Below, piece after piece: positions 30-12,084 of a stretch of 12,084 nucleotides of DNA. The notes beneath the pieces were generated by a model, which worked only from the letters and a program-made list of their open reading frames with translations, made no database searches and was not told where the DNA came from. Position 1 is the first letter of the stretch, and each line of letters starts with the position of its first letter. A program made the translations under genes and the position numbers. The DNA lies in IMG/VR virus record IMGVR_UViG_3300045988_052544; one strand, given 5' to 3'. This DNA is from a virus.

Positions 30-51
30 AAAGGTACACAAAACACGCAGA

Positions 52-90
52 TTTAACATTTCCCAACGCATTTTTAACACTTGGCAACAT
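52..90. repeat. Helically phased AACR/AACAY repeats in the ITR (cluster 1)
   Basis: AACA/AACG/AACA/AACA begin at 55, 65, 76 and 86, giving spacings of 10, 11 and 10 bp. They are embedded in TTTAACAYT-like units. Mirrored in the right ITR. Confidence 0.6.
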
Positions 91-140
91 AGTTTGGCAC
101 GGTTTTTGTTGTGTCGCCTGTACCGTACCCTTTATTATTC

Positions 141-168
141 TTTAACACTTTCAACATTTGTCAACACT
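141..168. repeat. Helically phased AACAY repeats in the ITR (cluster 2)
   Basis: tttAACACtttcAACATttgtcAACAC has AACA starts at 144, 153 and 163 (spacings 9 and 10 bp). TTTAACACT at 141..149 is identical to 73..81. Confidence 0.6.
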
Positions 169-189
169 GCTAAATTTTTGCAAAAGAAG

Positions 190-232
190 TGTTTCACGTG
201 GAACAGTAAGGGCAAATGTTTCATGTGAAACA
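190..232. promoter_or_regulatory. Two operator-like palindromes, TGTTTCA-N2-TGAAACA
   Basis: 190..205 is tgtttca-cg-tggaaca (1 mismatch). 217..232 is tgtttca-tg-tgaaaca (perfect 7-bp arms). Centres are 27 bp apart, upstream of the ITR promoter. Confidence 0.5.
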
Positions 233-283
233 AAGTGTTAACAACTATTAAATTAATTCTTTCACACTATTTAACACAAATAA

Positions 284-315
284 TTTGGTGGTTTCGCAAA
301 TTTGCCGTATCTTTG
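284..315 (+). promoter_or_regulatory. Bacteroidota-type promoter (-33 TTTG / -7 TAnnTTTG) inside the left ITR, firing inward
   Basis: TTTG at 284..287, a 20-nt spacer, then TATCTTTG at 308..315. The core TATCTTTGCA is also found at the internal promoter (5091..5100). The first ORF starts about 40 nt downstream. Confidence 0.65.
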
Positions 316-362
316 CACCGTGTTTAAGAAACAATAAGTTTAACAAATTAATTTAGGTAATT

Positions 363-530
363 ATGAACGAAAATTTTAATGAGACTGTTTTTAACTGTAT
401 TACAAGTGTTAACGCTTTGATGACTTCTAACGAAGTTGCAAAAGATGATAAGGCGGTTATTAAGTTGAACCGCTTTAAGAAATGGCTTAACGAATTCGCA
501 GCAGCTAACGGGGTGAACGAAGTAAAGTAA
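363..530 (+). CDS. Hypothetical small early protein, 55 aa (below the ORF-track cutoff)
   Basis: Hand translation gives ATG 363 to TAA 528..530: MNENFNETVFNCITSVNALMTSNEVAKDDKAVIKLNRFKKWLNEFAAANGVNEVK. It is co-oriented with the whole left arm and is the first ORF after the ITR promoter. An in-frame TAG lies at 354..356. Confidence 0.55.
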   Translation: MNENFNETVFNCITSVNALMTSNEVAKDDKAVIKLNRFKKWLNEFAAANGVNEVK

Positions 531-576
531 ATACCCCTTACAGGTAACAAAAGTTTAACGTTAAATATTTTAAGTT

Positions 577-942
577 ATGGCTAAAGGTTTTAGTTTCGCT
601 AGTACTTTTAATAAGACTAGTTTTGACATTGACACAACGGATTTTCCGTATGTGAAATTGGGTGACATCTATAACGACAAGGAAGAGGGCGGCGATGATG
701 TGGTACACCCTATCAACGGTTTGTACGTTCACATTTCAAAGTTGGGCGATTCACCTGTAATTATTGACGCAGAAAGCAAACGCCTTGTCAATTTGCCACA
801 GTTCACAGGTAACACAATTCGTGAAATTTTGGCTAACGAACAAGCGGTTGACGCTATCAAAGCCAATAAGGTAGGTTATACTATTTATGAGTATGAATCG
901 CACGCTAAAAAGTGTTACGGTATTACCTTTGTAGATAAGTAA
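577..942 (+). CDS. Hypothetical early protein, 121 aa; candidate ssDNA-binding protein (phi29 p5-like by size and position only)
   Basis: ORF-track ORF with an ATG start. It lies in the early operon upstream of the TP/DNAP genes and is followed by an attenuator hairpin. Its size is close to phi29 p5 (124 aa). No diagnostic motif was seen. Confidence 0.6.
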   Translation: MAKGFSFASTFNKTSFDIDTTDFPYVKLGDIYNDKEEGGDDVVHPINGLYVHISKLGDSPVIIDAESKRLVNLPQFTGNTIREILANEQAVDAIKANKVGYTIYEYESHAKKCYGITFVDK

Positions 943-971
943 CATATTGTAGTGTAAAGGGTGATAATTTT

Positions 972-1013
972 ACAGGGGTAACAGTAGTTTTATTGTTATC
1001 CCTGTTTTTGTTT
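972..1013 (+). terminator. Intrinsic terminator/attenuator between the small early genes and the TP-DNAP genes
   Basis: Stem acaggggtaaca (972..983) pairs with tgttatccctgt (994..1005), 12 bp with one G-U pair. The loop is 10 nt, followed by ttttgttt. Confidence 0.6.
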
Positions 1014-1033
1014 CATTTAAACTAACAAATAGT

Positions 1034-1663
1034 ATGGCAAATAAAAACCCTATAGGCTTTAGCGGTCGCACGTTTCGGGCAACAAAAAGGGCGCACGTTA
1101 AAAAAGAAATTATAAATGCTGTTGAGAGTAGTCCATCCCTCAGAAAACAAATATCTAAAGTATTCCAACAGGCAAACAGACGTATACAGAATATTGAAAA
1201 AAACAAAGTTGTTTCGCCTGCTGTTGTAGCATTAAATAAAGGTGACGTAAAGGGATTTACAAAATTTTCTATGCGTCACGAATGGAACGATTTAAAAATT
1301 GAATATTCAAAGGCTATTGCGTTTTTGCAGCAACCAACGTCAACGGCAACGGGAACGGATGAGTATGCAAAACACCTAAAGAAAACTTACAAACTTTCAG
1401 ATGATGAGTTTTCTTTGATGCAAGAAAAATTAATCGGTAAGATTGCAAGTGTATCAGACCAAAAATTTTTGGAACAATATTTAATGCAATATAAAGACTT
1501 TACAGGAGAACTTGAACAGGACGCACGGGACGTGTCCGACCAAATAGAAAGTGACGCTGTAAAGATAGCCGACAATTTACAAAACAGTATCAACAACGTA
1601 GGTGAAGTTGCAGAAGAAACCGTGCAAAAGATTTTAGACACTTTTAAAGATTTTGGTTTATAA
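1034..1663 (+). CDS. Candidate terminal protein (replication primer), 209 aa
   Basis: It lies immediately upstream of the protein-primed DNAP, and its stop overlaps the DNAP start (TAATG at 1661..1665), as in the phi29 gene 3 / gene 2 order. The N-terminus is basic (RTFRATKRAHVKKE, QQANRRIQNIEKNK) and the C-terminal third is acidic and helical (ELEQDARDVSDQIESDAVKIADNL). No catalytic motif can confirm the call. Confidence 0.5.
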   Translation: MANKNPIGFSGRTFRATKRAHVKKEIINAVESSPSLRKQISKVFQQANRRIQNIEKNKVVSPAVVALNKGDVKGFTKFSMRHEWNDLKIEYSKAIAFLQQPTSTATGTDEYAKHLKKTYKLSDDEFSLMQEKLIGKIASVSDQKFLEQYLMQYKDFTGELEQDARDVSDQIESDAVKIADNLQNSINNVGEVAEETVQKILDTFKDFGL

Positions 1664-3873
1664 TGAAGAAAATACCCTTTGAACTACATGAAGAAGTTTA
1701 CACCCCGAAAGATATTGCGAAAGTTTTATCTTTGGCGGTAAACGAAAAAAATTTCACAGGAAACAATAAGGGCAATAAATTCTTAAATGTTCCTGTTTCC
1801 TTTGATATTGAAACAACGTCTTTCTACAGGGACGCAGACGGGGAAACCTACAGTTATGAACGTTATATAAAATTAGGCGGTAAAGATACCAAAATGGAAA
1901 AATGTAGTTTAATGTACGTTTGGCAATTTGGTGTAAACGGTTATTGCATAATAGGTCGCACTTGGGACGAATTTTTAGAAATGTTGTCTGAGATAGTACG
2001 TTTGCTAAACTTAAACCCAAAAAGACGTATTATTATATACGTTCACAATTTGGCTTATGAGTTCCAATTTTTGAGGGAGTTGTTACAATGGGAAAAAGTT
2101 TTCTCTATTGATTTACGCAAACCGATTTACGGGATAACTAAAGACGGTTTAGAGTTCCGCTGTAGTTATTTGTTATCGGGTTATTCGTTGGCAAAGTTGG
2201 GTGAACAGTTACACACTTATAAGTGTTCAAAGTTAGTCGGGGATTTAGATTACAGTCTATTGCGTCACAGTCAAACACCGTTAACGAAAAAAGAAGTCGG
2301 TTACTGTTTGAATGATATAAAAGTAGTTATGTGTTACGTACAGGAACTAATAGAACGTTATAAAGGAATAACGAAACTACCTTTAACTAAGACGGGTTTT
2401 GTACGCAAATATTGTCGTTCTGTATGTTTCAAGAAAACAGACGAAGAAACAGGAAAAACAACACCAAACTTTAAGTATTTCGACAAAATACATGATTTAA
2501 ACATAACAGGTACAGGAGAGTTCGAAATGTTGCAGCGTGCTTTTTCGGGTGGTTTTACACATGCAAATGCAAAGTATACAGACGAAGTAATAGAAAATGT
2601 AGATAGTTACGACTTTACAAGTAGTTACCCCTATGTTATGGTTTCCGAAAAGTTCCCGATGAGTACGGGTGTTGTTGTGCCTGTTAAATCAATGAAACAG
2701 TTTGATTTTATGACTAGTAAATTTTGTTGTGTCTTTGATATTGAGATAACAAACATTTTTGCTAAATCAGAGAACGAAAACCCTATATCGGTAAGTAAGT
2801 GTTTCGTAAAAGAAAATGTTTCTGAGAATAACGGGCGGTTGGTTTGTGCAAGTAAAATCTGTATGACAATAACGGAAATAGATTTTAAAGTATTTTCGCA
2901 GTTTTATTCGTGGGAACGTGTACGTATAGGCAAAATGATTTGTTACCGAAAAGAATATTTACCGACTGAGTTTGTTTTGTCGATTTTGCACCTGTACGAA
3001 ATGAAAACCAAATTAAAGGGCGTAAAGGGAAAAGAAGTAGAATATTTGAATAGCAAAGAAATGTTGAATAGTTGTTACGGCATGTGCGTTACAAATCCGT
3101 TACGCGATGAAATTTTATGTGACGGTGAAACATGGGACGTTGAACACCTAACAGGTATGAAACAGTTAGAAATGCTGAACAAATACAATGACAGTAGAAA
3201 CAGGTTTCTTTTTTACCCTTGGGGTATATATGTAACGGCTTATGCTAGACGCAACCTATTTACGGGTATTTCTGAATGTGGAGACGATTACATTTATAGT
3301 GATACCGATTCGGTTAAAATTATGAACGGTGATGCACACAAAGAGTACTTTAAGCTATATAATGAACTAGCACAAAGAAAATTGCGTGCAGCCTGTAAGT
3401 TCCACAAAATACCATTTGAAAAGGTTGAACCCGTCACGATAAAGGGAATAGCGAAACCGCTTGGTGTGTGGGATTACGAAGGACGGTACAGACGTTTTAA
3501 GACTTTAGGTGCAAAGCGTTATATGGTTGAAGAACAAAACGCACTTACCGTTAACGGTGAAAATTACAATTATAGTATGACTGTTTCGGGTGTAAACAAA
3601 AAATCTGCTATCCCCTACATGTTAGAAACATTTGGGGAAAACGGCATATTTGACGCTTTTACTAATTACTTAGACATACCGCCGACGGCAACAGGTAAGA
3701 ATATACACACATATATAGATTACGAACAGACAGGCACAATAAAAGACTACTTAGGCACGGTTTCAAGTTACGACACGGTAACGGGTGTACACTTAGAGCC
3801 AACGGGGTATACTTTGAGCCTATCAGTACTTTATATAAATTATTTAATGGGTATCAGATTAAAGAAAGAATAA
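1663..3873 (+). CDS. Protein-primed family B DNA polymerase (phi29 gp2-like), 736 aa
   Basis: Exo I is FDIETTS, Exo II is HNLAYEFQF and Exo III is YCLNDIKVV. Pol motif A is DFTSSYPYVM, motif B is KEMLNSCYG, motif C is YSDTDSV and the KxY motif is GAKRYM. About 75 aa separate motifs B and C, consistent with a TPR2-type insertion. Confidence 0.95.
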   Translation: MKKIPFELHEEVYTPKDIAKVLSLAVNEKNFTGNNKGNKFLNVPVSFDIETTSFYRDADGETYSYERYIKLGGKDTKMEKCSLMYVWQFGVNGYCIIGRTWDEFLEMLSEIVRLLNLNPKRRIIIYVHNLAYEFQFLRELLQWEKVFSIDLRKPIYGITKDGLEFRCSYLLSGYSLAKLGEQLHTYKCSKLVGDLDYSLLRHSQTPLTKKEVGYCLNDIKVVMCYVQELIERYKGITKLPLTKTGFVRKYCRSVCFKKTDEETGKTTPNFKYFDKIHDLNITGTGEFEMLQRAFSGGFTHANAKYTDEVIENVDSYDFTSSYPYVMVSEKFPMSTGVVVPVKSMKQFDFMTSKFCCVFDIEITNIFAKSENENPISVSKCFVKENVSENNGRLVCASKICMTITEIDFKVFSQFYSWERVRIGKMICYRKEYLPTEFVLSILHLYEMKTKLKGVKGKEVEYLNSKEMLNSCYGMCVTNPLRDEILCDGETWDVEHLTGMKQLEMLNKYNDSRNRFLFYPWGIYVTAYARRNLFTGISECGDDYIYSDTDSVKIMNGDAHKEYFKLYNELAQRKLRAACKFHKIPFEKVEPVTIKGIAKPLGVWDYEGRYRRFKTLGAKRYMVEEQNALTVNGENYNYSMTVSGVNKKSAIPYMLETFGENGIFDAFTNYLDIPPTATGKNIHTYIDYEQTGTIKDYLGTVSSYDTVTGVHLEPTGYTLSLSVLYINYLMGIRLKKE

Positions 3874-3874
3874 T

Positions 3875-5011
3875 ATGAAACAGAAAAAAGAAAAAGTGGA
3901 AACACCGAAATTTTACAGTTTAAACCGTATTTTGGCAAAAAACGCAGATTACAATGTAATTTTCGGTGAACGCTCCAACGGTAAGACTTATGCAACTTTG
4001 TTGTATGGTATCAAAGAATATTTGAAAACAGGTAAACAAATGGCGTATATTAGGCGTTGGCGTGAAGATTTAAGGGGTAAACGTGCAGAAAGTTTGTTTA
4101 GTAATCATGTAGCCAACGGGGTAATACAGGAACTAACAGACGGTAAGTTTAACGAAGTGTTTTACGTATCGGGTAAATGGTTTCTTTCGTCTTATGACCC
4201 CGAAACTAAAAAGCGTGTACCCGATAACACCCCGTTTTGTTTCGGTTTCTGTTTATCAGAACAGGAACACGAAAAATCTAGTAGTTACCCAAATATAACT
4301 ACAGTCGTGTTTGATGAGTTCTTAACTAGACGTTATTATTTGCCTGATGAATTTATGTTATATATGAACCTGTTGAGCACAATAATACGACAACGTAATG
4401 ACGTTAAAGTTTTTATGCTTGGTAACACGGTAAATCAGTTTTGCCCGTACTTTACCGAAATGGGTTTGAAACAGGTTAGAGTAATGGAACAGGGAACTAT
4501 TGATATTTACCGTTTCGGTGAACACGGTGCAACTGTTGCAGTAGAATACTGTAGTACGATTGTTAAACAAAAAGCTAGTAACAAATATTTCTGTTTCGAC
4601 AATGAAAATTTGCAGATGATTACAGGCGGTAAATGGGAACTTGCAGTATATCCACATTTGCCTGTAAAATACAAACCGAATGATGTTTTATTTGTGTTCT
4701 ATATTCAGTTTAACGAAATGACGTTACAGGGTAACGTTATTCAAGTAGACAACGAAAGAGGGGTTAACAATTTTATATATATTCATAATAAAACGACCCC
4801 TATTAAAGATACAGATAATAGTTTGATTTATTCGTTACAGATGAACGGCAAACCAAACTACAAACGAAAGTTACTGAGTACTGCAAGTTATCTTGAGCAA
4901 CAAATAACAAAGTATTTCGCCACCGATAAGGTATTTTATCAGAATAACGAAATAGGCGAAATTGTACGCAATTATTTAATGGCAAGTGCTCGCAGCAACA
5001 TAATTACCTAA
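3875..5011 (+). CDS. DNA encapsidation ATPase (phi29 gp16-like), 378 aa
   Basis: Walker A is GERSNGKTY and Walker B is TTVVFDEF. The N-terminus FYSLNRIL...NVIFGERSNGKTYA...YIRRWREDL parallels phi29 gp16 FYNPQKML...FVIGARGIGKSYA...YVRRYKPEL. EKSSSYPNITTVVFDEFL parallels EKSNAYPNVSTIVFDEFI. Confidence 0.9.
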   Translation: MKQKKEKVETPKFYSLNRILAKNADYNVIFGERSNGKTYATLLYGIKEYLKTGKQMAYIRRWREDLRGKRAESLFSNHVANGVIQELTDGKFNEVFYVSGKWFLSSYDPETKKRVPDNTPFCFGFCLSEQEHEKSSSYPNITTVVFDEFLTRRYYLPDEFMLYMNLLSTIIRQRNDVKVFMLGNTVNQFCPYFTEMGLKQVRVMEQGTIDIYRFGEHGATVAVEYCSTIVKQKASNKYFCFDNENLQMITGGKWELAVYPHLPVKYKPNDVLFVFYIQFNEMTLQGNVIQVDNERGVNNFIYIHNKTTPIKDTDNSLIYSLQMNGKPNYKRKLLSTASYLEQQITKYFATDKVFYQNNEIGEIVRNYLMASARSNIIT

Positions 5012-5019
5012 TATCTGTT

Positions 5020-5066
5020 AACAGGGGTTAAAAATGTTTTACGTGAAACACTTTTCCCCTGTTTTA
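5020..5066 (+). terminator. Intrinsic terminator ending the left (replication/packaging) operon
   Basis: aacagggg (5020..5027) pairs with cccctgtt (5056..5063), with further internal pairing, followed by a T-rich tract. The loop holds the third TGTTT(T/C)A-N2-TGAAACA palindrome. Confidence 0.6.
5035..5050. promoter_or_regulatory. Operator-like palindrome (third locus) upstream of the internal promoter
   Basis: tgtttta-cg-tgaaaca has 1 mismatch to the ITR sites. Its centre is about 25 bp upstream of the -33 box at 5067. Confidence 0.5.
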
Positions 5067-5098
5067 TTTGGTGATACCAAATAAAAGTATTATCTTTG
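5067..5098 (+). promoter_or_regulatory. Internal Bacteroidota-type promoter for the structural (late) operon
   Basis: TTTG at 5067..5070, a 20-nt spacer, then TATCTTTG at 5091..5098. The geometry and the -7 core match the ITR promoter. ATG 5131 follows. Confidence 0.65.
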
Positions 5099-5130
5099 CA
5101 TCATAAAATAACAAAGTTAAATTTTGCTAT

Positions 5131-5325
5131 ATGGATTTAAACGCTATTGTATCACTAGTTAGTAACGTGGGTTTTCCTGTTGCCGTGTGCATTGCCCTGT
5201 TTTGCTATATGGAGAAACAGAATGAACGACATCAACAGGAAACCGACAAGTTAAATGAAACCGTACAAAGTAACACGAAAGTGTTAACAGAACTTTGTAC
5301 CTTAATTAAAACACTTGTTAAATAA
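5131..5325 (+). CDS. Small single-pass membrane protein, 64 aa; holin-like topology (possibly YvrJ-like)
   Basis: The N-terminal hydrophobic segment IVSLVSNVGFPVAVCIALFCY is followed by a charged helical tail (EKQNERHQQETDKLNE). The stop overlaps the portal start (TAATG). The function is inferred only. Confidence 0.55.
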   Translation: MDLNAIVSLVSNVGFPVAVCIALFCYMEKQNERHQQETDKLNETVQSNTKVLTELCTLIKTLVK

Positions 5326-6317
5326 TGGAGAAAGAAAACTTATATAACAGGTATCAAACAGAAGTTAAAAACAAAGATACTGCATTATTCACATTTATGC
5401 AACGTACTTTGTGCATGACTTCAAAAATGTTTGAGTATACGGGTACACCCGAAACGTTACCGCCTATAGAACTTGAAAAGATTCTGCAAACATCGGGAAA
5501 CGTGGGTATAGCAGAAGTGAACGGTAATTTATACGCACTACAGGGTTCACGGGGTGGAGAATGTGACGCTTACGGGTACGGCAAAGATTACGTGGTTGCA
5601 AACCCTTGGCTACAGTTGAACAAAACCTTTAAAATTGGTTCTGATATTGTCGTTATCAACAACACACCGTTTGCAGATTCAATTTTACCTATTATTGGAA
5701 AATACGGTGTTCTTTACGTTGACGCAACAATAACGCTTAATATGACTAGTATTCTAACTAGAATTTTAATGCTTATTTCTGCAAGTGATGACAAAACCAA
5801 ACAAAGTGCCGAAATGTTTCTGCAAAAGGTTTTAAACGGGGATTTCTCAGTAATTGGCGAAAATGCCTTTTTTAAAGGTGTTAACATGCAAACCCCCCCA
5901 ACAAACAGTAACCAACAGATAACGCAACTTATTGAGTTATTGCAGTATTACAAAGCGTCAATGTTTAACGACCTTGGTTTGAACGCAAACTATAACATGA
6001 AACGTGAACGTTTAAATACGCAAGAGGTTTCAATGAATATAGACGCTTTAATGCCTTTCGTTGATTCAATGTTAAAGGAACGTGTAGACGGTGTGCAAAA
6101 GGTTAACGAAATGTTCGGTACAGAGATTTCCGTAACGCTTGGTTCTAGTTGGAAAATTGAGCACGAAAACTATTTGTCGCTATTACAGGCAACAGAGGAC
6201 GGACACGACCACACCGATACAGAAGACATCGACCCCGTACAGGAAAACGAAACAGAAGAAACAGAAGAAACAGAAGAAACAGAAGAAACAGAAGAAACAG
6301 AAGAAAAAAGAAGATGA
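5325..6317 (+). CDS. Portal / head-tail connector (phi29 gp10-like), 330 aa, with an acidic (TEE)6 C-terminal tail
   Basis: [29 protein letters not shown] parallels phi29 gp10 [44 protein letters not shown]...[12 protein letters not shown] parallels NLEKKERMVTDEVSSN...KINELYGLNVKV. Confidence 0.85.
   Translation: [330 protein letters not shown]
6249..6302 (+). repeat. Perfect 9-bp tandem repeat (gaaacagaa) x6 inside the portal gene
   Basis: Six head-to-tail copies lie at 6249..6302 and encode (TEE)6. They stay in frame at any copy number. Confidence 0.95.
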
Positions 6318-6883
6318 AAATAAATGAACTTTTCACGGGTGAAAATGGTTTGTTTGAAAAAATCTTTAAACCCCTTTTCCCTGTTTTGTATGATTCAATA
6401 TTTGAGGCTGATGACCCAAAAATTATAGATATTGATTTTCGGTTCAAATACGGGGACAGAACTCTAGTTAACGCTATTACAAACGAAACTGCAAATGATA
6501 TTGTAAAAGGTATTATTACGGTAAAGTTTGATGAATGGCAAAAACAGATTCAAGTATTTAAAAAAGAATATGACGTGTTAGACCCTGTTACAGAAAAGAC
6601 AACGGAAACGGTAAATAACACCGTGGACGAAACAGGGAATAATAACACGGTCGATTCAAGTGTAACATTTAATAATGGAGATTTCGGAAATGACACAAAA
6701 CAGCAGCGAGATTCCACAGGGAACAGACAAGAAACAGGCACGAAAACAACTGTTAAAAACGGTGTTCCGTCTAGCGTTCTTACTAGCGAAATTATTCAAA
6801 AAGAAATGAGTTTACGCAAAACTAATTTCAGAACGCAAGTTATAACAGAACTTGCAAAAGAGTTAACAGTAGATATTTATTAA
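6314..6883 (+). CDS. Hypothetical virion protein, 189 aa; candidate lower collar/adaptor or scaffold
   Basis: It overlaps the portal stop by ATGA (6314..6317) and sits between the portal and capsid genes. The central T/N/G/D-rich segment (TEKTTETVNNTVDETGNNNTVDSSVTFNNGDFGNDTK) is flanked by helical ends. There is no diagnostic motif. Confidence 0.6.
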   Translation: MKINELFTGENGLFEKIFKPLFPVLYDSIFEADDPKIIDIDFRFKYGDRTLVNAITNETANDIVKGIITVKFDEWQKQIQVFKKEYDVLDPVTEKTTETVNNTVDETGNNNTVDSSVTFNNGDFGNDTKQQRDSTGNRQETGTKTTVKNGVPSSVLTSEIIQKEMSLRKTNFRTQVITELAKELTVDIY

Positions 6884-6901
6884 TACTTAATTTTTATAAA
6901 A

Positions 6902-8086
6902 ATGGAAGTAAAACAGATTTTTAATTTAGTTAACACCGTATCGGGTGAAGTATTGGGCAAAACTGATTTGGTACATGAAGACTTAACGGGCTTGGTTGAC
7001 CTTGGCACGGAAGTGTTCAACCAAAACGCAGTCGACAATTATGTTAAATCCCTTGTAAACCATATCGGCAAAGTGGTTTTCGTAAACCGTCCTTACAGTG
7101 GTAAAGTTCCTTCTGTTCTCATGGACGCTTGGGAGTTCGGTTCAGTATTGGAGAAAATTTCTGCTGACGTTCCAAACGCAGAAGAGAATGACACATGGAA
7201 CTTACAGGACGGCAAGGAATACAAACAGGACGTTTTCCATAAACCGACTGTTTCCGCTAAGTTCTTCAACTCTAAGGTAACTTTTGAGGTGCCCGTATCT
7301 ATCACGGAAAGACAGGTTAAAGAGTCTTTCAGTAGTGCTGAACAAATGAACGGCTTTTTGTCAATGATTTATTCAGCAGTTGACAAGTCGATGACTATCA
7401 AGACGGACGCACTTATTATGCGTACTATCTGCAACATGGTAGCCGAAACTTTGGACGCAGATAAAACCGATTTCGGTTTCGTACCGTCTACACACGAAAC
7501 AGTCGACTACACTGCTGCTAGTACTGTGCGATGTGTAAATCTGTTGAAACTTTACAAAGACAAGACGGGTGCACAGTTGACCCCTGCAACCGCTATCACA
7601 ACACCCGACTTTATCCGTTTTGCGGCATATATCATGGGTTTGTACTCAGACCGTTTGCAGACCATTTCGACCCTGTTTAACGTTGGCGGTAAGGAACGTT
7701 TCACACCGAAAGATATTTTGCACACTGTTTTGTTGTCGGATTTCGCTTCTGCTGCAAAAACGTATTTGTACGCTGATACTTACCATAACGACAACGTTTT
7801 GTTACCACAGGCTGAAACGGTTGCAAGTTGGCAAGCAACAGGCAAAGATTACGCCTTTGAGAACACTTCAAAGATTGACGTGAAGAGTGCAAGCGGCGCA
7901 AGCGTTTCTATTGGTGGTGTATTGGGTGTTATGTTCGACCGTGACGCTTTGGGTGTAACAAACCTTGATAAGCGAGTAACAACCAACTACAACGCAAAGG
8001 CAGAGTTCTTCAATAACTACTTCAAGTTTGATGCTGGTTACTTCAACGACACAAACGAAAACTTTGTTGTGTTCTTTGTTGCCTAA
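6902..8086 (+). CDS. Major capsid protein (phi29 gp8-like), 394 aa
   Basis: NAVDNYVKSLVNHIGKVVFVNR parallels phi29 gp8 [22 protein letters not shown]. The gene lies after the portal and is followed by a strong terminator, typical of a highly expressed capsid gene. Confidence 0.85.
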   Translation: MEVKQIFNLVNTVSGEVLGKTDLVHEDLTGLVDLGTEVFNQNAVDNYVKSLVNHIGKVVFVNRPYSGKVPSVLMDAWEFGSVLEKISADVPNAEENDTWNLQDGKEYKQDVFHKPTVSAKFFNSKVTFEVPVSITERQVKESFSSAEQMNGFLSMIYSAVDKSMTIKTDALIMRTICNMVAETLDADKTDFGFVPSTHETVDYTAASTVRCVNLLKLYKDKTGAQLTPATAITTPDFIRFAAYIMGLYSDRLQTISTLFNVGGKERFTPKDILHTVLLSDFASAAKTYLYADTYHNDNVLLPQAETVASWQATGKDYAFENTSKIDVKSASGASVSIGGVLGVMFDRDALGVTNLDKRVTTNYNAKAEFFNNYFKFDAGYFNDTNENFVVFFVA

Positions 8087-8105
8087 GTTTTGTTGTTTAA
8101 CTGTT

Positions 8106-8148
8106 GGGTGTGTTTCCTGTAGTTGATAGCACAGGGACACACCCTTTT
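8106..8148 (+). terminator. Intrinsic terminator/attenuator just after the capsid gene
   Basis: gggtgtgtttcctgt (8106..8120) pairs with acagggacacaccc (8131..8144), 14 bp with one bulge and one G-U pair. The loop is 10 nt, followed by tttt at 8145..8148. Confidence 0.65.
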
Positions 8149-8160
8149 AAATTTAGTGGT

Positions 8161-8598
8161 ATGCTGATAAAAACTTATAATTATAATGGAGAACCTAACA
8201 GGGTTAGCAAAACACTCCAGGAAAACGAAGAGTATACGGGTGTATTAAATTCAACTGTAAACGTATTAGAGCCTGTTATCCGTTTTCGTACACGCAACGT
8301 TGTCACGTTTAATTACGTTTATATCGAAAGTTTGAAACGTTATTATTTCGTGTCGGAAATACGACAAGACGGTGATGTTTGCACGGTTTATTTGCGTACT
8401 GATGTTTTAATGACGTACAAAGATAAAATCTTAGATTCTACAGGAACGTTAACAAAGGGTGCAACGGTTAACGGGTATGCGTCAAACCGTTCAAATACTT
8501 ACGATTTGCGCCCTAAACTCAAAAAGCTAGATTTCCCAAACAAAGGGTTATTTAACGATAGTGATAACATTATAATGGTAACTATTAAAGGCAATTAG
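8161..8598 (+). CDS. Tail protein resembling the N-terminal domain of the phi29 gp9 tail knob, 146 aa from ATG 8161
   Basis: NYVYIESLKRYYFVSEIRQDGDVCTVYLRTDVLMTYKDKI parallels phi29 gp9 [45 protein letters not shown]. The ORF-track start at 8104 is a TTG inside the terminator hairpin, so ATG 8161 is preferred. The gene ends in the only TAG stop among the called genes. Confidence 0.65.
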   Translation: MLIKTYNYNGEPNRVSKTLQENEEYTGVLNSTVNVLEPVIRFRTRNVVTFNYVYIESLKRYYFVSEIRQDGDVCTVYLRTDVLMTYKDKILDSTGTLTKGATVNGYASNRSNTYDLRPKLKKLDFPNKGLFNDSDNIIMVTIKGN

Positions 8599-8600
8599 TT

Positions 8601-10448
8601 ATGAGTATAGCGATAAAGAAATTTAACCTGTACGGTGCAACGGCTAATTTAAAAATACAGGGTTTAGACGTTATTTGTACTTTTACGCTAAATACAAATA
8701 CCGTTTGGAACGGTGAACCGTTTACACTTGAATTCGTAGATAACGATAGCAGTTTTCACAACAAAACCGTAACAGTTGAAACTGTAAAAGATAGTACAGA
8801 AGTAATAACAAAAAAGGTTGCGTACAGTTACGCAAGTATGAGTGTTAGCGTTATCGGTTATTCTACAACTTACAACGGTGAACAACTTACTTTAGGCAAT
8901 TTGGTTAATAAAGTCCCACACAGTACGTTAGAACAAATGTATACGGGTGTAAATAGTGATGACGGAAAAAGCGCCTACAGTAGAATAACGTTAAAAGCCG
9001 ATGATGGTTTTAAATTTGTTAACGGTACATTAAAAAACGATATTAATTACGGTTTCGATTATTATTATGATGATAGTGTAGCGCAACAAATTGTTGGTAC
9101 ACCATTAAATAATTTAAATATAGGTTGGGAGTTTACAGGTGAAACGGTTGCAAAAGGAACTGAGATACAAAATAATATAACTGGTAATTGTGAAGAAACA
9201 CACACTATAAACGGTACAAACGTTTCTATAACTATTACGGGTAATAGTGATGCAGCAAAGTTTGTTGGGGTTTCTGTAGAATATACAGACGTTAACGGGG
9301 AAACAAAAACAGTTGTACCCGATTTTACGGGCAACGTTATAAATATCTCTTTAACTGATGTAAAAAAAGGTACAACGGTTATTTTGTCAGGTGCTTACCG
9401 TTTGGTATGTAACACGGTTAATTCTATGACAGGTTGCACCGTAACAGGGTTAAAAGATTATTATATAGAAAACGAAACCGTTAGCGTAATTGCAACGGCT
9501 AGTGGAAAAACTCATTTTGACGCGGCAAATTTGCCTTTGGCTAAATGGGAAATGCTTATCGGTGGAACAGAAGAATACGAATTTACTTTGAGTAACAAAG
9601 GCAAAACGGCAACATTAAATTTTACGTTTCCTAACGACAAAGAAAAAGTTAGTGATTCCACATTTACTTTGTTAGGTGGTACAGTTCCCGACACAGAAAT
9701 AACGGGCTATGGTAGTATTAATGTTTATTTGGTCGACACAAAGACTTTAGAGGATTTTTCAAAAATTCGTTTCACTAAAAAGTTAAATGAAAGTTATGAA
9801 TATGAATACTATGACATCGGGGACTATGTGAACAGGTTACACAAAGTTTATGTAAATGTGCCTAACATTTCGCCTACATCTTTAAAGTTGGCTAACTTTG
9901 ATACAAGTATCACAACAAATAGTGTAGATGATTCTAAAGTACATGTAGATTTCGGTAACGTACTGTTACCTGTTGTTTCGGATAATAGCAACGACTTTAA
10001 CGCTACAATACAATGTTTTATCCCGTTTGTCGGTTTTGTCCCTGTAGATAGTGACTTTATAGGAAAAGAAATAAATCTTAGTTATGATGTAGATTTAGTT
10101 ACAGGATATTGTGCCTATAACTTATTTTGTGACGGTATCACTATTAATAACGGTACGGCAAATTGTAGCAGTGAAATTATTTACAAAACGTTGGCAAATG
10201 ACGAAATAAGCACGGTTGGAGACTTGAGCGACCTTAATACGGTTTTAATGGGTCTTGAACCTTTTATTACTATTAAGTACTTCGACCCTTTAAACGTTCC
10301 TGTTAACAACACGACAGAACAAAAACGTATCGGGGACGTTACAGGGTTTGCACAATTTGAAAACGTTGACTTATCAACAACTAACAGTATGTTAGTTGAT
10401 GAATTTAATGAGATTGTTTCACAACTTGGAAACGGTGTTTATCTATAA
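8601..10448 (+). CDS. Tail knob C-terminal homolog with a large beta-rich N-terminal extension; probable receptor-binding tail protein, 615 aa
   Basis: The C-terminal ~170 aa resemble phi29 gp9. [30 protein letters not shown] parallels [62 protein letters not shown] parallels [34 protein letters not shown]. The N-terminal ~440 aa look like several beta-sandwich modules. Confidence 0.65.
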   Translation: [615 protein letters not shown]

Positions 10449-10451
10449 AAT

Positions 10452-10486
10452 AAAACAGGCGGTAAATATGTTACCGCCTGTTTTTT
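10452..10486. terminator. Bidirectional intrinsic terminator between the convergent operons
   Basis: acaggcggtaa (10455..10465) pairs with ttaccgcctgt (10471..10481) around a 5-nt loop. An A-run lies on the left and a T-run on the right. Confidence 0.8.
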
Positions 10487-10731
10487 CATTTCTTGTAAAA
10501 ATCATTTAATAACCCTTTGTTATTAAGATAAGTTATTAATTTATCCCGTTCTGTTTTATAAATTTGAGCGGTCAACTCTAGAGCGTCAATATATTTTATA
10601 TTTGCCTGTAGAGTGTCAGCACATGAAGAAGTTAACAAACTAGTTTCGCCGCCTGTATTATTTGCTACAACGTTCAAACTTTTTATTGTTATAGCCAACG
10701 AACCTTTTAAAATTTCAAAATTTTCTTTCAT
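10486..10731 (-). CDS. Hypothetical protein, 81 aa, translationally coupled to the endolysin
   Basis: Its start overlaps the endolysin stop by ATGA (10728..10731, minus strand). It looks helical. No transmembrane segment, signal peptide or convincing lipobox was seen. Confidence 0.55.
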   Translation of the reverse strand: MKENFEILKGSLAITIKSLNVVANNTGGETSLLTSSCADTLQANIKYIDALELTAQIYKTERDKLITYLNNKGLLNDFYKK

Positions 10732-11150
10732 TTCTTTTCTAGATTCATTATAATTTGGTTGCGTGGTTTCCCGTTACGATTGCAAACTGAAACGTGATAC
10801 CAAAAAGACGTTGACCCCTTACGGTGTTCTTTTATAAGTTGGTCAAAACCGCCTGTTTCCCTCAGAACCTTTTCTAAAGTTTCCATATCACTACAAACAA
10901 TATCAGCCGCCAAACCTTTTAAGTGTTGACTATTAGCCACACCGCCAACGGCTTTGTTTAACATCGGACATCGAAAACCGCTATTTACTAATATAGGTTT
11001 ACCCAACTTTTCACGTATCTTGTCTAAGTAATCGGCTAAACGGTTTAAGTTGTCGACTACTTCAAATGTAGGCATATTGTCTATACCTAAACGCTTTGCG
11101 GTTGCTGAATTGATGAACTCAGACAATGTAAAATACTTAATTCTTTTCAT
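10728..11150 (-). CDS. Endolysin, zinc peptidase of the Peptidase_M15_3 (M15A) family, 140 aa
   Basis: FTLSEFINSATAKRLGIDNMP...SGFRCPMLNKAVGGVANSQHLKGLAADI...WYHVSV matches the family signature (SxHxxGxAxD plus a downstream His as zinc ligands). Confidence 0.9.
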   Translation of the reverse strand: MKRIKYFTLSEFINSATAKRLGIDNMPTFEVVDNLNRLADYLDKIREKLGKPILVNSGFRCPMLNKAVGGVANSQHLKGLAADIVCSDMETLEKVLRETGGFDQLIKEHRKGSTSFWYHVSVCNRNGKPRNQIIMNLEKK

Positions 11151-11154
11151 ATCA

Positions 11155-11349
11155 TTATTTAGTTGAAACTACAAACCATTTTCTACTCTCTTTGTGTGTC
11201 GGAAAACGTCCCTTTACAGTTACCGAACTATCACCCTGTAAGTAATCGATTTTGTTATTAAAGAACTCGCTTACTTTGTCAGAACGTACCATATAACACA
11301 CTTCTTTACTAGCCTGTTTTAATGTGACTTTGAAATAACTATGTTCCAT
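11155..11349 (-). CDS. Hypothetical protein, 64 aa
   Basis: ATG-started ORF co-oriented with the right-arm operon, lying 4 nt from the endolysin start. No recognisable motif. Confidence 0.5.
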   Translation of the reverse strand: MEHSYFKVTLKQASKEVCYMVRSDKVSEFFNNKIDYLQGDSSVTVKGRFPTHKESRKWFVVSTK

Positions 11350-11365
11350 ATAATAAATAATTTGT

Positions 11366-11389
11366 GCCTGTAGCTTTTATACTACAGGC
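11366..11389 (-). terminator. Hairpin (weak attenuator) between the first and second right-arm genes
   Basis: gcctgtag (11366..11373) pairs with ctacaggc (11382..11389) around an 8-nt loop. The downstream minus-strand sequence is A/T-rich but has no clean U-tract. Confidence 0.35.
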
Positions 11390-11397
11390 GGTTAAAC

Positions 11398-11724
11398 TTA
11401 TGCTATTCTTTCACTTGTTTGTATCAACTGCAAAAACGAACTTGCATCTTTTCCCAACTTGTTACAAAGTTGTGTAACACAGCACCCATATTCATTAATG
11501 TAGTTCAAACTATCTTTTGATTCAAAGATAGTATACACGTCTTTAGTTAACTTTGGCAAACTGTTGTGTTTAATACAGTTAACTTCGTACTCATACATAA
11601 CTTTTGCAACATCTGCAAAAACACCTGTAACTACTTGCGTGTTACGTGTTGTTTCACTCTTTACTCTAACACCTTTAACAGATATAACTGTTTCGAACTC
11701 AAATGTAATTTTATACTTTGCCAT
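11398..11724 (-). CDS. Hypothetical protein, 108 aa, first gene of the right-arm operon; possible C-terminal helix-turn-helix
   Basis: ATG-started ORF downstream of the right ITR promoter. The C-terminal VTQLCNKLGKDASSFLQLIQ has a helix-turn-helix-like pattern. This is weak and from inspection only. Confidence 0.55.
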   Translation of the reverse strand: MAKYKITFEFETVISVKGVRVKSETTRNTQVVTGVFADVAKVMYEYEVNCIKHNSLPKLTKDVYTIFESKDSLNYINEYGCCVTQLCNKLGKDASSFLQLIQTSERIA

Positions 11725-11769
11725 AATTTTGTATTTTAAAGGGTTTAACTTTGTTTCTTAATCACGGTG

Positions 11770-11801
11770 CAAAGATACGGCAAATTTGCGAAACCACCAA
11801 G
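11770..11801 (-). promoter_or_regulatory. Right ITR promoter firing inward (minus strand)
   Basis: This is the mirror of 284..315. caaagata at 11770..11777 is TATCTTTG on the minus strand. The -33 box reads CTTG instead of TTTG because of the ITR mismatch at 11801. Confidence 0.6.
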
Positions 11802-11852
11802 TTATTTGTGTTAAATAGTGTGAAAATATTAATTTAATAGTTGTTAACACTT

Positions 11853-11895
11853 TGTTTCACATGAAACATTTGCCCTTACTGTTCCACGTGAAACA
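11853..11895. promoter_or_regulatory. Two operator-like palindromes (right ITR copies)
   Basis: 11853..11868 is tgtttca-ca-tgaaaca and 11880..11895 is tgttcca-cg-tgaaaca. They mirror 217..232 and 190..205. Confidence 0.5.
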
Positions 11896-12055
11896 CTTCT
11901 TTTGCAAAAATTTAGCAGTGTTGACAAATGTTGAAAGTGTTAAAGAATAATAAAGGGTACGGTACAGGCGACACAACAAAAACCGTGCCAAACTATGTTG
12001 CCAAGTGTTAAAAATGCGTTGGGAAATGTTAAATCTGCGTGTTTTGTGTACCTTT

Positions 12056-12084
12056 AGATCGGAAGAGCACACGTCTGAACTCCA
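12056..12084. other. Illumina TruSeq adapter read-through (technical)
   Basis: agatcggaagagcacacgtctgaactcca is the start of AGATCGGAAGAGCACACGTCTGAACTCCAGTCAC. Confidence 0.97.

Follow-up and report, generated by a model that had tools for sequence, protein, structure and literature searches.

The window analyzed here—the whole stretch of 12,084 nucleotides in IMG/VR virus record IMGVR_UViG_3300045988_052544—holds, between two sequencing adapters, the complete linear genome of a small phage: positions 30–12055, or 12,026 bp, at 36.0% GC. It is probably the genome of an uncultivated, virulent phage of the phi29 type, one of the miniature podophages that resemble Astrithrvirus, common in the human gut and most likely at home in a gut member of the Bacteroidota. 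The lineage is public, abundant and already grouped with Salmonella phage Astrid; it is also uncultivated and, as far as we found, has no published host.

The ends of the genome can be read from the letters themselves. An Illumina adapter, TGGAGTTCAGACGTGTGCTCTTCCGATCT, occupies the first 29 positions of the window, and its reverse complement occupies the last 29. The phage DNA between them begins 5'-AAAGGTACAC and finishes GTGTACCTTT-3', the right end being the reverse complement of the left. A repeat finder places inverted arms that are 99% complementary at 1–334 and 11751–12084; with the adapters removed, these become inverted terminal repeats (ITRs) of 305 nucleotides with four mismatches. 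Among 87 related contigs, many independent assemblies stop at the identical AAAGGTACAC, and in five the adapter abuts it directly. Because the terminus is shared in this way and the adapters lie flush against it, the ends must be where the linear molecule itself stops, which makes the genome complete. An earlier note on this DNA, made from the sequence alone, had claimed as much when it described a self-contained, protein-primed, phi29-type genome of about 12 kb between adapters. Its count of about 15 genes is likewise borne out: 15 open reading frames (ORFs) fill 91% of the genome, and no tRNA is present. The ends and the genes are as follows (aa, amino acids).

1–29, no strand: Illumina adapter, a library artifact and not phage (sequence read directly)
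30–334, plus strand: left ITR, 305 nucleotides, with the probable replication origin, the 5'-AAA terminus, two palindrome copies and the leftward-end promoter (conserved in relatives)
363–530, plus strand: 55-aa protein, highly conserved in the clade (median identity 98%), with no family match
577–942, plus strand: 121-aa probable single-stranded-DNA-binding protein (SSB) of the protein-primed phage type (tblastn)
1034–1663, plus strand: 209-aa candidate terminal protein, the replication primer (position, and homology to Astrid and Phanie)
1663–3873, plus strand: protein-primed DNA polymerase of family B, PolB (PF03175, PHROG 1907, motifs)
3875–5011, plus strand: 378-aa gp16-type DNA packaging ATPase (PF05894)
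5131–5325, plus strand: 64-aa single-pass membrane protein, holin-like (PHROG 4898, holin, E = 8e-8; homologue of Astrid ORF5 and Phanie gp5)
5325–6317, plus strand: 330-aa portal (upper collar connector) with a C-terminal acidic (ETE)n repeat (PF05352)
6314–6883, plus strand: 189-aa protein, putative short lower collar, or tail tube (synteny, and homology to Astrid and Phanie)
6902–8086, plus strand: 394-aa phi29-type major capsid protein (PF25622)
8161–8598, plus strand: 145-aa predicted tail knob protein, N-terminal piece (profile matches to tail knob proteins)
8601–10448, plus strand: 615-aa predicted distal tail knob protein, C-terminal piece (homology to Astrid ORF10)
10486–10731, minus strand: 81-aa protein, highly variable in the clade (ORF, clade comparison)
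10728–11150, minus strand: 140-aa endolysin, peptidase M15_3 (PF08291, E = 2.3e-23; PHROG 894, E = 6e-39)
11155–11349, minus strand: 64-aa protein (ORF)
11398–11724, minus strand: 108-aa protein, the first gene of the right operon (ORF)
11751–12055, minus strand: right ITR, with the right promoter and two palindrome copies (repeat finder, motif search)
12056–12084, no strand: Illumina adapter, a library artifact (reverse complement of 1–29)

Several of the features by which phi29-like podophages are recognized are here: a linear genome with ITRs, a protein-primed PolB, a gp16-type ATPase, and a portal and capsid of the phi29 type. The polymerase matches PF03175 (E = 4.6e-15) and PHROG 1907 (E = 3.9e-71) and carries all of the exonuclease motifs Exo I–III and polymerase motifs A, B and C (FDIET, NLAYEFQF, YCLND, DFTSSYP, KEMLNSCYG, YSDTDS). 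The packaging ATPase matches PF05894 (E = 1e-23), has the Walker A motif GERSNGKT, and is 51–53% identical to its counterparts in Astrid and Acinetobacter phage Phanie. The portal matches PF05352 (E = 1.2e-14) and PHROG 2038 (E = 1e-37), and the capsid matches PF25622 (Phi29_MCP; E = 1.5e-52) and is 57–58% identical to those of Astrid and Phanie. The PolB, ATPase, portal, capsid and M15 lysin that had been proposed for this DNA thus all find their families.

The remaining replication genes are less easily named. Immediately ahead of the PolB gene, and overlapping it, stands the gene for the candidate terminal protein, whose product is 29–33% identical to Astrid ORF2 and Phanie gp2. Profile searches against phi29 gp3 and the PDB sequences gave nothing significant. 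The assignment that the earlier note had made therefore stands on position and on homology to the Astrid and Phanie proteins, not on likeness to phi29 gp3. Three residues—T102, S103 and Y149—are invariant among relatives and are candidates for the one that primes. The probable SSB is 29–34% identical to annotated SSBs of Staphylococcus phi29-like phages, with E down to 3e-5 by tblastn; a profile search found no detectable similarity to phi29 p5. Across the related loci L008 to L072 the terminal protein comes in two allele classes, one about 62–66% and the other about 88–98% identical to that of the window, while the polymerase beside it stays about 91% identical, which suggests that terminal protein alleles are exchanged within the clade.

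Where does the genome belong? Megablast against 50,697 GenBank phage records found no match, and blastn against the Astrithrvirus-like phages covers 9–13% of the genome (Astrid: 13%, at 67% identity). These are its closest isolated relatives, phages of 10.4–11.9 kb from Salmonella, Acinetobacter, Pectobacterium, Enterobacter, Shigella and Vibrio, all of which infect Gammaproteobacteria. Their polymerases are 42–46% identical to that of the window (44–46% in Astrid and Phanie), and for 10 of the 15 window proteins Astrid and Phanie encode a homologue in collinear order. As annotated, the gene order in these relatives is a small ORF, a protein of about 200 aa, the polymerase, the ATPase, a small membrane protein, the portal, a protein of about 185 aa, the capsid, a protein of about 146 aa, a large protein, the lysin and a few leftward genes. 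These comparisons make the genome a new member, at species to genus level, of the Astrithrvirus-like mini phi29-type phages. It has the marks of that clade, which is capsid cluster 23 of Evseev et al. 2024: the capsid groups with Astrid, the length falls within 10–14 kb, the genes run terminal protein, polymerase, ATPase, transmembrane protein, portal, collar, capsid, knob N-terminal and knob C-terminal piece, and fiber genes are missing. The best complete capsid representative, at 50% clustering, is 57% identical. The genome falls outside the genus Astrithrvirus as the International Committee on Taxonomy of Viruses (ICTV) defines it, by about 70% nucleotide similarity over the genome to Astrithrvirus astrithr, and outside the Salasmaviridae as well. 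The capsid query hits no Bacillus phage at 1e-5 and does not match the phi29 capsid gene (tblastn, 1e-5), and the only Bacillus phage among the PolB matches listed, Chedec 11, is 25% identical.

The lineage is well populated, too well for the earlier note's suggestion that it might be undescribed. IMG/VR holds 76 related contigs. One of them (L008) matches 98% of the genome at 97.6% identity and so belongs to the same species; about 65 are genus-level relatives at 77–89% nucleotide identity, 11.4–12.7 kb long and with ITRs of about 180–500 bp; and 11 are more distant, with capsid identities of 61–80%. Forty-four blocks of public assemblies, human-gut metagenomes from Fiji among them, contain the exact capsid protein. 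More than 120 capsid clusters (at 90% identity clustering) are at least 91% identical to the window capsid, which is a lower bound, and the capsid family as a whole comprises at least 480 clusters (at 50% clustering) with E below 1e-30. In Table S1 of that 2024 review, about 170 metagenome-assembled genomes (MAGs) of 11–14 kb, from human gut or feces, are placed in Astrid's capsid cluster (PMC11476376). The same review describes the Astrid group as phi29-like phages of Gram-negative bacteria with genomes of 11–14 kb, a short lower collar, a two-gene tail knob and no fiber or spike genes (Evseev et al. 2024, PMC11476376), so that the view that characterized phi29-like phages infect only Firmicutes, Mollicutes and Actinomyces, on which the note relied, is out of date. 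A Bacteroidales host has been suggested for another phi29-like MAG (PMC11476376); beyond that review our literature searches found no description of a phi29-like phage of Bacteroidota, Prevotella or Gastranaerophilales, nor, for the uncultivated gut relatives, any account of host, taxonomy or biology.

The capsid phylogeny that the note had called for was built as a neighbor-joining tree. In it, the window and its gut relatives, which lack Shine–Dalgarno (SD) sites and carry the promoter box TAnnTTTG, form a monophyletic clade, sister to a group of SD-using phages made up of Astrid, Phanie, Vibrio phage K58 g2 and three IMG/VR genomes, L081, L082 and L083 (3300000494, 3300025589 and 3300010327). 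These last three have capsids 61–62% identical to that of the window, keep their SD sites, lack the TAnnTTTG box and group with the Proteobacteria-infecting phages. The terminal sequence of L082, GGGTTATCC, is the same as Phanie's.

It is these signals of gene expression, together with the lysin, that bear on the host. Promoters with a TTTG element and a TAnnTTTG box at –7, the latter a hallmark, are typical of Bacteroidota, as is a lack of SD sites. Promoters of this kind, with TTTG at –33 and TAnnTTTG at –7, stand before the operons of the phage. The signals are these.

190–205 and 217–232, no strand: palindrome pair TGTTTCACGTGAAACA, candidate operator (motif count, ITR alignment)
284–315, plus strand: left promoter, Bacteroidota type, TTTG-N20-TATCTTTG (pattern search)
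972–1005, plus strand: hairpin and T-run, terminator or attenuator between the SSB and terminal protein genes (–20.6 kcal/mol, z = –7.4)
5020–5063, plus strand: left-operon terminator hairpin, its loop holding the fifth palindrome copy (–17.8 kcal/mol, z = –3.0)
5067–5098, plus strand: late promoter, Bacteroidota type, TTTG-N20-TATCTTTG (pattern search, clade conservation)
10452–10484, no strand: bidirectional terminator between the convergent operons, a 14-bp stem on both strands (–20.5 kcal/mol, z = –6.7)
11770–11777, minus strand: right promoter, –7 box TATCTTTG within the right ITR (ITR copy, ahead of the rightmost leftward gene)

On the plus strand TTTG-N17-23-TAnnTTTG is found twice, at the left and late promoters; chance would give about one occurrence in the window. 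Since that is so, the count by itself says little, and the argument is one of conservation. The TAnnTTTG boxes sit, correctly oriented, in exactly the three large non-coding regions of the genome. In every one of the 70 or more relatives in the clade, the stretch from the ATPase gene to the gene after it holds a TAnnTTTG box, and in the divergent ones, whose ATPases are 71–81% identical and whose flanking sequences no longer align, the box is kept as TATCTTTG, TATATTTG, TATTTTTG, TAACTTTG or TACCTTTG. TA and TTTG are thus fixed at this late promoter, and the two bases between them are free (TC, AT, TT, AC or CC in the divergent relatives). The end promoters behave likewise, the –7 box of the left one being kept in L009, L034, L072, L075 (TACCTTTG), L077 and L080 (TATATTTG). 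Astrid, Phanie and L081–L083 have neither the gap nor the box after the ATPase gene. Sites of the sigma-70 type are not enriched in the window, where 34 were found against 35.7 expected. SD sites, scored as GGAG or GAGG at –20 to –4 of the gene start, precede none of the 15 genes here and one of 83 in clade relatives; the SD-using genomes have them before 8 of 15 genes (Astrid), 9 of 13 (Phanie) and 9 of 17 (L081–L083). Lack of SD sites is a trait that Bacteroidota share with others. The expression signals are, then, Bacteroidota-like, as the earlier note had said.

The lysin points the same way. In place of the CHAP lysin of Astrid and Phanie, the window encodes an M15 peptidase on the other strand. 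Among the matches listed from isolated phages, the nearest lysins are those of Bacteroides fragilis phages, at 48–52% identity, followed by those of Achromobacter phages at 44–45%. A search of a 5.8-billion-protein set returned matches dominated by the phage's own clade, with no clue to taxon. TAnnTTTG promoters, start sites without SD sequences and the lysin together make a Bacteroidota host the best reading, one that we think likely, and that is supported but unproven. Of the host that the earlier note had put forward, what stands is this support from promoters, start sites and lysin; proof is a different matter, and two relatives have turned up in MAGs of the Gastranaerophilales type.

Read by analogy with phi29, the observed gene set and ITRs would work as follows. 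Replication would start from both ends, with the terminal protein priming PolB on the 305-bp ITRs; the 5'-AAA ends would allow sliding-back, and the conserved part of the ITR—the first 85 nucleotides or so, which, with the palindromes, are kept in the 29 relatives whose ITRs were aligned—is the likely origin. Sequence signals predict three promoters driving three operons, each closed by hairpin terminators. The left operon would express the 55-aa protein, SSB, terminal protein, polymerase and packaging ATPase, with the strong hairpin at 972–1005 after the SSB gene and the terminator at about 5020–5063. The late operon would run from the promoter at 5067–5098 to the terminator at 10452–10484 and express the holin-like protein, portal, collar, capsid and two tail-knob genes, and the right operon, from the ITR promoter leftward, would express four genes, including the lysin. 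The 16-bp palindrome TGTTTCACGTGAAACA occurs, with at most one mismatch, five times in the window against 0.18 times expected: two copies in each ITR (190–205 and 217–232; 11853–11868 and 11880–11895) and one at 5035–5050, in the terminator loop before the late promoter. Copies therefore lie near all three promoters, and we infer that the palindrome may be an operator for a phage regulator that switches between early and late expression. Finally, the gp16-type ATPase would package the DNA through the portal into a small capsid of the phi29 type, and the particle would adsorb either by its own hypervariable distal tail knob protein or, as in Phanie, by the tail of a helper phage.

A few further observations attach to these parts. 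Eight of the 12 copies of the heptamer TTAACAC in the window are clustered in the ITRs (30–334 and 11751–12055), and may be binding sites for a protein that organizes the origin. The acidic (ETE)n tail of the portal is encoded by a perfect 9-nucleotide tandem repeat (GAAACAGAA, 6.4 copies) at 6249–6306, the copy number of which varies among genomes that are 99.5–99.8% identical: the portal is 330 aa long here, 333 in L003 and L005, 336 in L004 and 339 in L002. The region of the capsid gene at 7001–8000 is 43–45% GC, against 32–38% elsewhere in the genome.

Among the tail proteins, the 189-aa one is a homologue of Astrid ORF7 and Phanie gp7 (22–25% identity, E = 5e-4), which likewise follow the portal, and from this we infer that it is a short lower collar; profile searches against phi29 gp11, phi29 gp7 and the PDB sequences gave nothing significant. 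The 145-aa gene begins at TTG 8104 in the ORF list, and the ATG at 8161 gives 145 aa, as in its homologues, Astrid ORF9 and Phanie gp9. The profile of its product has a weak but specific match to the major tail protein of phage C1 (4eo2; E = 2.5e-4) and to phi29 gp9 (5fb4), and hhalign aligns it, again weakly, with residues 91–128 of phi29 gp9 (E = 3.7e-4). The 615-aa protein has a variable, beta-rich N-terminal part of about 360 aa, which resembles an array of Ig-like domains, and a conserved C-terminal part of about 250 aa, common to Astrid and Phanie, that aligns with Astrid ORF10 at 25% identity (E = 6e-13). It has no significant match in the PDB or Pfam, and profile searches found no significant similarity to phi29 gp9; a DUF4998 match (E = 0.006) was too weak to count as evidence, and the tail proteins of nine relatives also lack a significant Pfam domain. 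The earlier note had called both proteins gp9-like knob pieces. For the N-terminal piece the weak profile matches lend this some support, and for the C-terminal piece it is homology to Astrid ORF10 that argues for a distal knob.

The array in this predicted distal knob differs among relatives in both sequence and length, the proteins ranging from 525 to 1023 aa, and the gene is the most variable long gene in the genus-level clade: median identity is 35%, compared with 90% for the capsid and 95% for the ATPase. Hypervariability beside a conserved capsid and ATPase is what a protein with a variable partner would show, and the 615-aa protein is probably the one that contacts the host, or another partner. 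The capsules of Bacteroidota are highly variable. Pfam and PHROG scans of the window proteins recognize no tail fiber, spike, head fiber or scaffold gene. The earlier note had reported the lack of tail fiber, head fiber and clear scaffold correctly; the missing fiber is a known trait of the whole clade rather than something special to this genome (PMC11476376). With no fiber gene, adsorption must rely on the distal tail knob protein or on the tail of a helper.

The second of these options leads to a different reading of the genome, to which we give perhaps one chance in a handful: that it is a tail hijacker like Phanie, with a short tail that is non-infectious by itself, whose virions bind the tail of an unrelated helper phage in the same host. 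Phanie, from the sister clade, shares with the window its gene order, split tail knob and lack of fiber genes, and Phanie virions, in the work of Pourcel et al. 2024 as summarized in PMC11476376, are non-infectious unless bound to the contractile tail of myophage Aci01-1. Other phi29-like phages of Gram-negative bacteria are proposed to hijack tails likewise (PMC11476376), Vibrio phage 'K58 g2' has a name that hints at a second genome from a single lysate, and no fiber or spike gene is recognizable here. Against all of this, the sequence carries no sign of helper dependence, and Astrid has been cited as a phage that is no satellite (bioRxiv 10.1101/2025.06.18.659913). The strong diversification seen in the distal knob would be expected if that protein itself touched variable host surfaces; a helper tail that varies could, however, leave the same pattern. 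Should the genome be a satellite after all, capsids of this clade, each with a stub tail, might dock onto the tails of unrelated Bacteroidota phages with the distal knob as docking adaptor, a doubtful proposal that is put forward by analogy.

We continue to favor a phi29-type phage of gut Bacteroidota, and several points weigh against it. A search of Rfam across the window found no match at E ≤ 1, to the packaging RNA (pRNA) or to any other RNA family, which leaves one part of the phi29 packaging motor unaccounted for; the motor of this clade may do without a pRNA, or use an unrecognized RNA, for example one from the long ITR. The pRNA is a feature of phi29 and related Bacillus phages only (PMC11476376), so its absence does not exclude membership of the broad phi29-like group. 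Synteny and published modeling of homologues are the grounds for the proposed roles of the terminal protein, lower collar and distal knob, and neither AlphaFold2 model is usable: that of the 615-aa protein, from a shallow alignment of sequences 84–100% identical, has a predicted local distance difference test score (pLDDT) of 39, and that of the 189-aa protein, folded alone, has 46, both too poor for a fold search. The lysin's identity of about 50% to those of Bacteroides phages is only modestly above the 45% or so to those of Achromobacter phages. No prophage or isolate ties the clade to a host, and a scan of species-representative genomes with the lysin gave only two matches, both of them whole phage contigs in MAGs of Melainabacteria/Gastranaerophilales.

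Those two matches raise the less probable alternative, to our minds a rather unlikely one, that the host is a gut bacterium of the Gastranaerophilales (Melainabacteria). The contigs, of 11.4–11.8 kb (L086, QHMG01000022.1; L087, CAAGHI010000088.1), come from species-representative MAGs of the Genome Taxonomy Database and were binned, in two separate studies, as Candidatus Melainabacteria and Candidatus Gastranaerophilales; one has an adapter at its end. They are either mis-binned or a hint of the host. A GC content of 36% fits low-GC hosts such as these, and cyanobacterial relatives use SD sites sparingly. Two independent bins are not negligible, yet binning of a 12-kb contig of 36% GC is weak evidence, since assignment by composition and coverage is error-prone at that length. 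The other long contigs that bear the phage are plain chimeras: two public contigs of 16.8 and 15.2 kb, considered as host junctions, were rejected, for in them the phage is joined 8 and 108 nucleotides inside its left end to flanks (L090:1–1335 and L092:1–1452) that hold SD-using, low-GC bacterial genes for GNAT acetyltransferases and an FtsX permease. Such chimeras may arise by ligation at abundant blunt genome ends, and they mean that this phage is easily mis-joined. The conserved TAnnTTTG –7 box and a lysin nearest those of Bacteroides phages also speak against the Gastranaerophilales, and the clade is so frequent and so varied in gut metagenomes that an abundant host is more plausible than a rare one. 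A host among the Proteobacteria, like those of Astrid and Phanie, or among the Firmicutes, like those of the classical phi29-like phages, is very improbable, even though the isolated relatives all grow on Gammaproteobacteria and most phi29-like phages on Firmicutes: SD sites precede no gene here, whereas the Proteobacteria-infecting relatives use them, sigma-70-type sites show no enrichment, the clade forms a monophyletic branch of its own, and the lysin is of the M15 type, which acts on Gram-negative walls, and is nearest those of Bacteroides phages.

What was already known is considerable: the genome type, the size class, the gene set and near-identical public sequences, to which the window adds a clean end-to-end reference. 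What is new in the present analysis is a coherent case, from promoters, start sites and lysin, that a large branch of these phages in the human gut is adapted to Bacteroidota. As far as we found, no phage of the phi29 type has been isolated on a host from this phylum. If the case holds, a widespread 12-kb clade with rewired promoters and start sites would represent one clean jump between host phyla in a tiny, conserved genome, and it would give Bacteroidota a linear, self-replicating DNA chassis of very small size. That no fiber gene is present, taken with the helper dependence of Phanie, also makes the clade a concrete candidate for tail-borrowing satellites in the gut. If that proved true, it would be the first satellite-helper system of this kind in the dominant phylum of the human gut.

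Among known systems, the genome may first be set beside Bacillus phage phi29 (Salasmaviridae). The two share a protein-primed PolB, a gp16-type ATPase, a portal, a capsid fold family, a tail knob (predicted here) and a linear genome with ITRs and a 5'-AAAG terminus. They differ in that phi29 has 19.3 kb of DNA, ITRs of 6 bp, the pRNA, a scaffold, head fibers, gp12 appendages and gp13, none of the latter five found here, and in gene order: here the ATPase gene belongs to the left operon. 'Bacteriophage sp. isolate 2692_55609' (cluster 30, PMC11476376) is also a fecal phi29-like genome, of 12.1 kb, with a split knob, no fibers and a proposed Bacteroidales host; going by its description, it is set apart by a different capsid cluster, nearer that of Amedibacillus phages, and by a GC content of 42.5% against 36% here.

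Astrid and Phanie are much closer. They belong to the same group of 10.4–11.9-kb genomes with ITRs, they have the same order of genes from that for the terminal protein to that for the distal tail knob, and 10 of the 15 genes are shared, with identities of 57–58% for the capsid, 51–53% for the ATPase, 44–46% for PolB and 40% for the portal. Both have the two-gene tail knob, and neither has fiber, head-fiber or recognizable scaffold genes. The differences lie largely in what surrounds this core: the ITR is 83 nucleotides long in Astrid and 305 here; the gap with a promoter after the ATPase gene, the TAnnTTTG promoters and the lack of SD sites are found here; there the late operon ends with the lysin, a CHAP amidase, and here the lysin is an M15 peptidase on the opposite strand; and the small early genes differ, as do the known hosts, which there are Gammaproteobacteria. 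Closest of all are the human-gut relatives in IMG/VR (IMGVR_UViG_3300045988_036917, for example) and the gut MAGs in GenBank that have been grouped with Astrid. These have the same ends, ITRs, promoters and gene order, and what sets them apart from the window is chiefly the distal tail knob protein, along with the 81-aa protein and the allele of the terminal protein.

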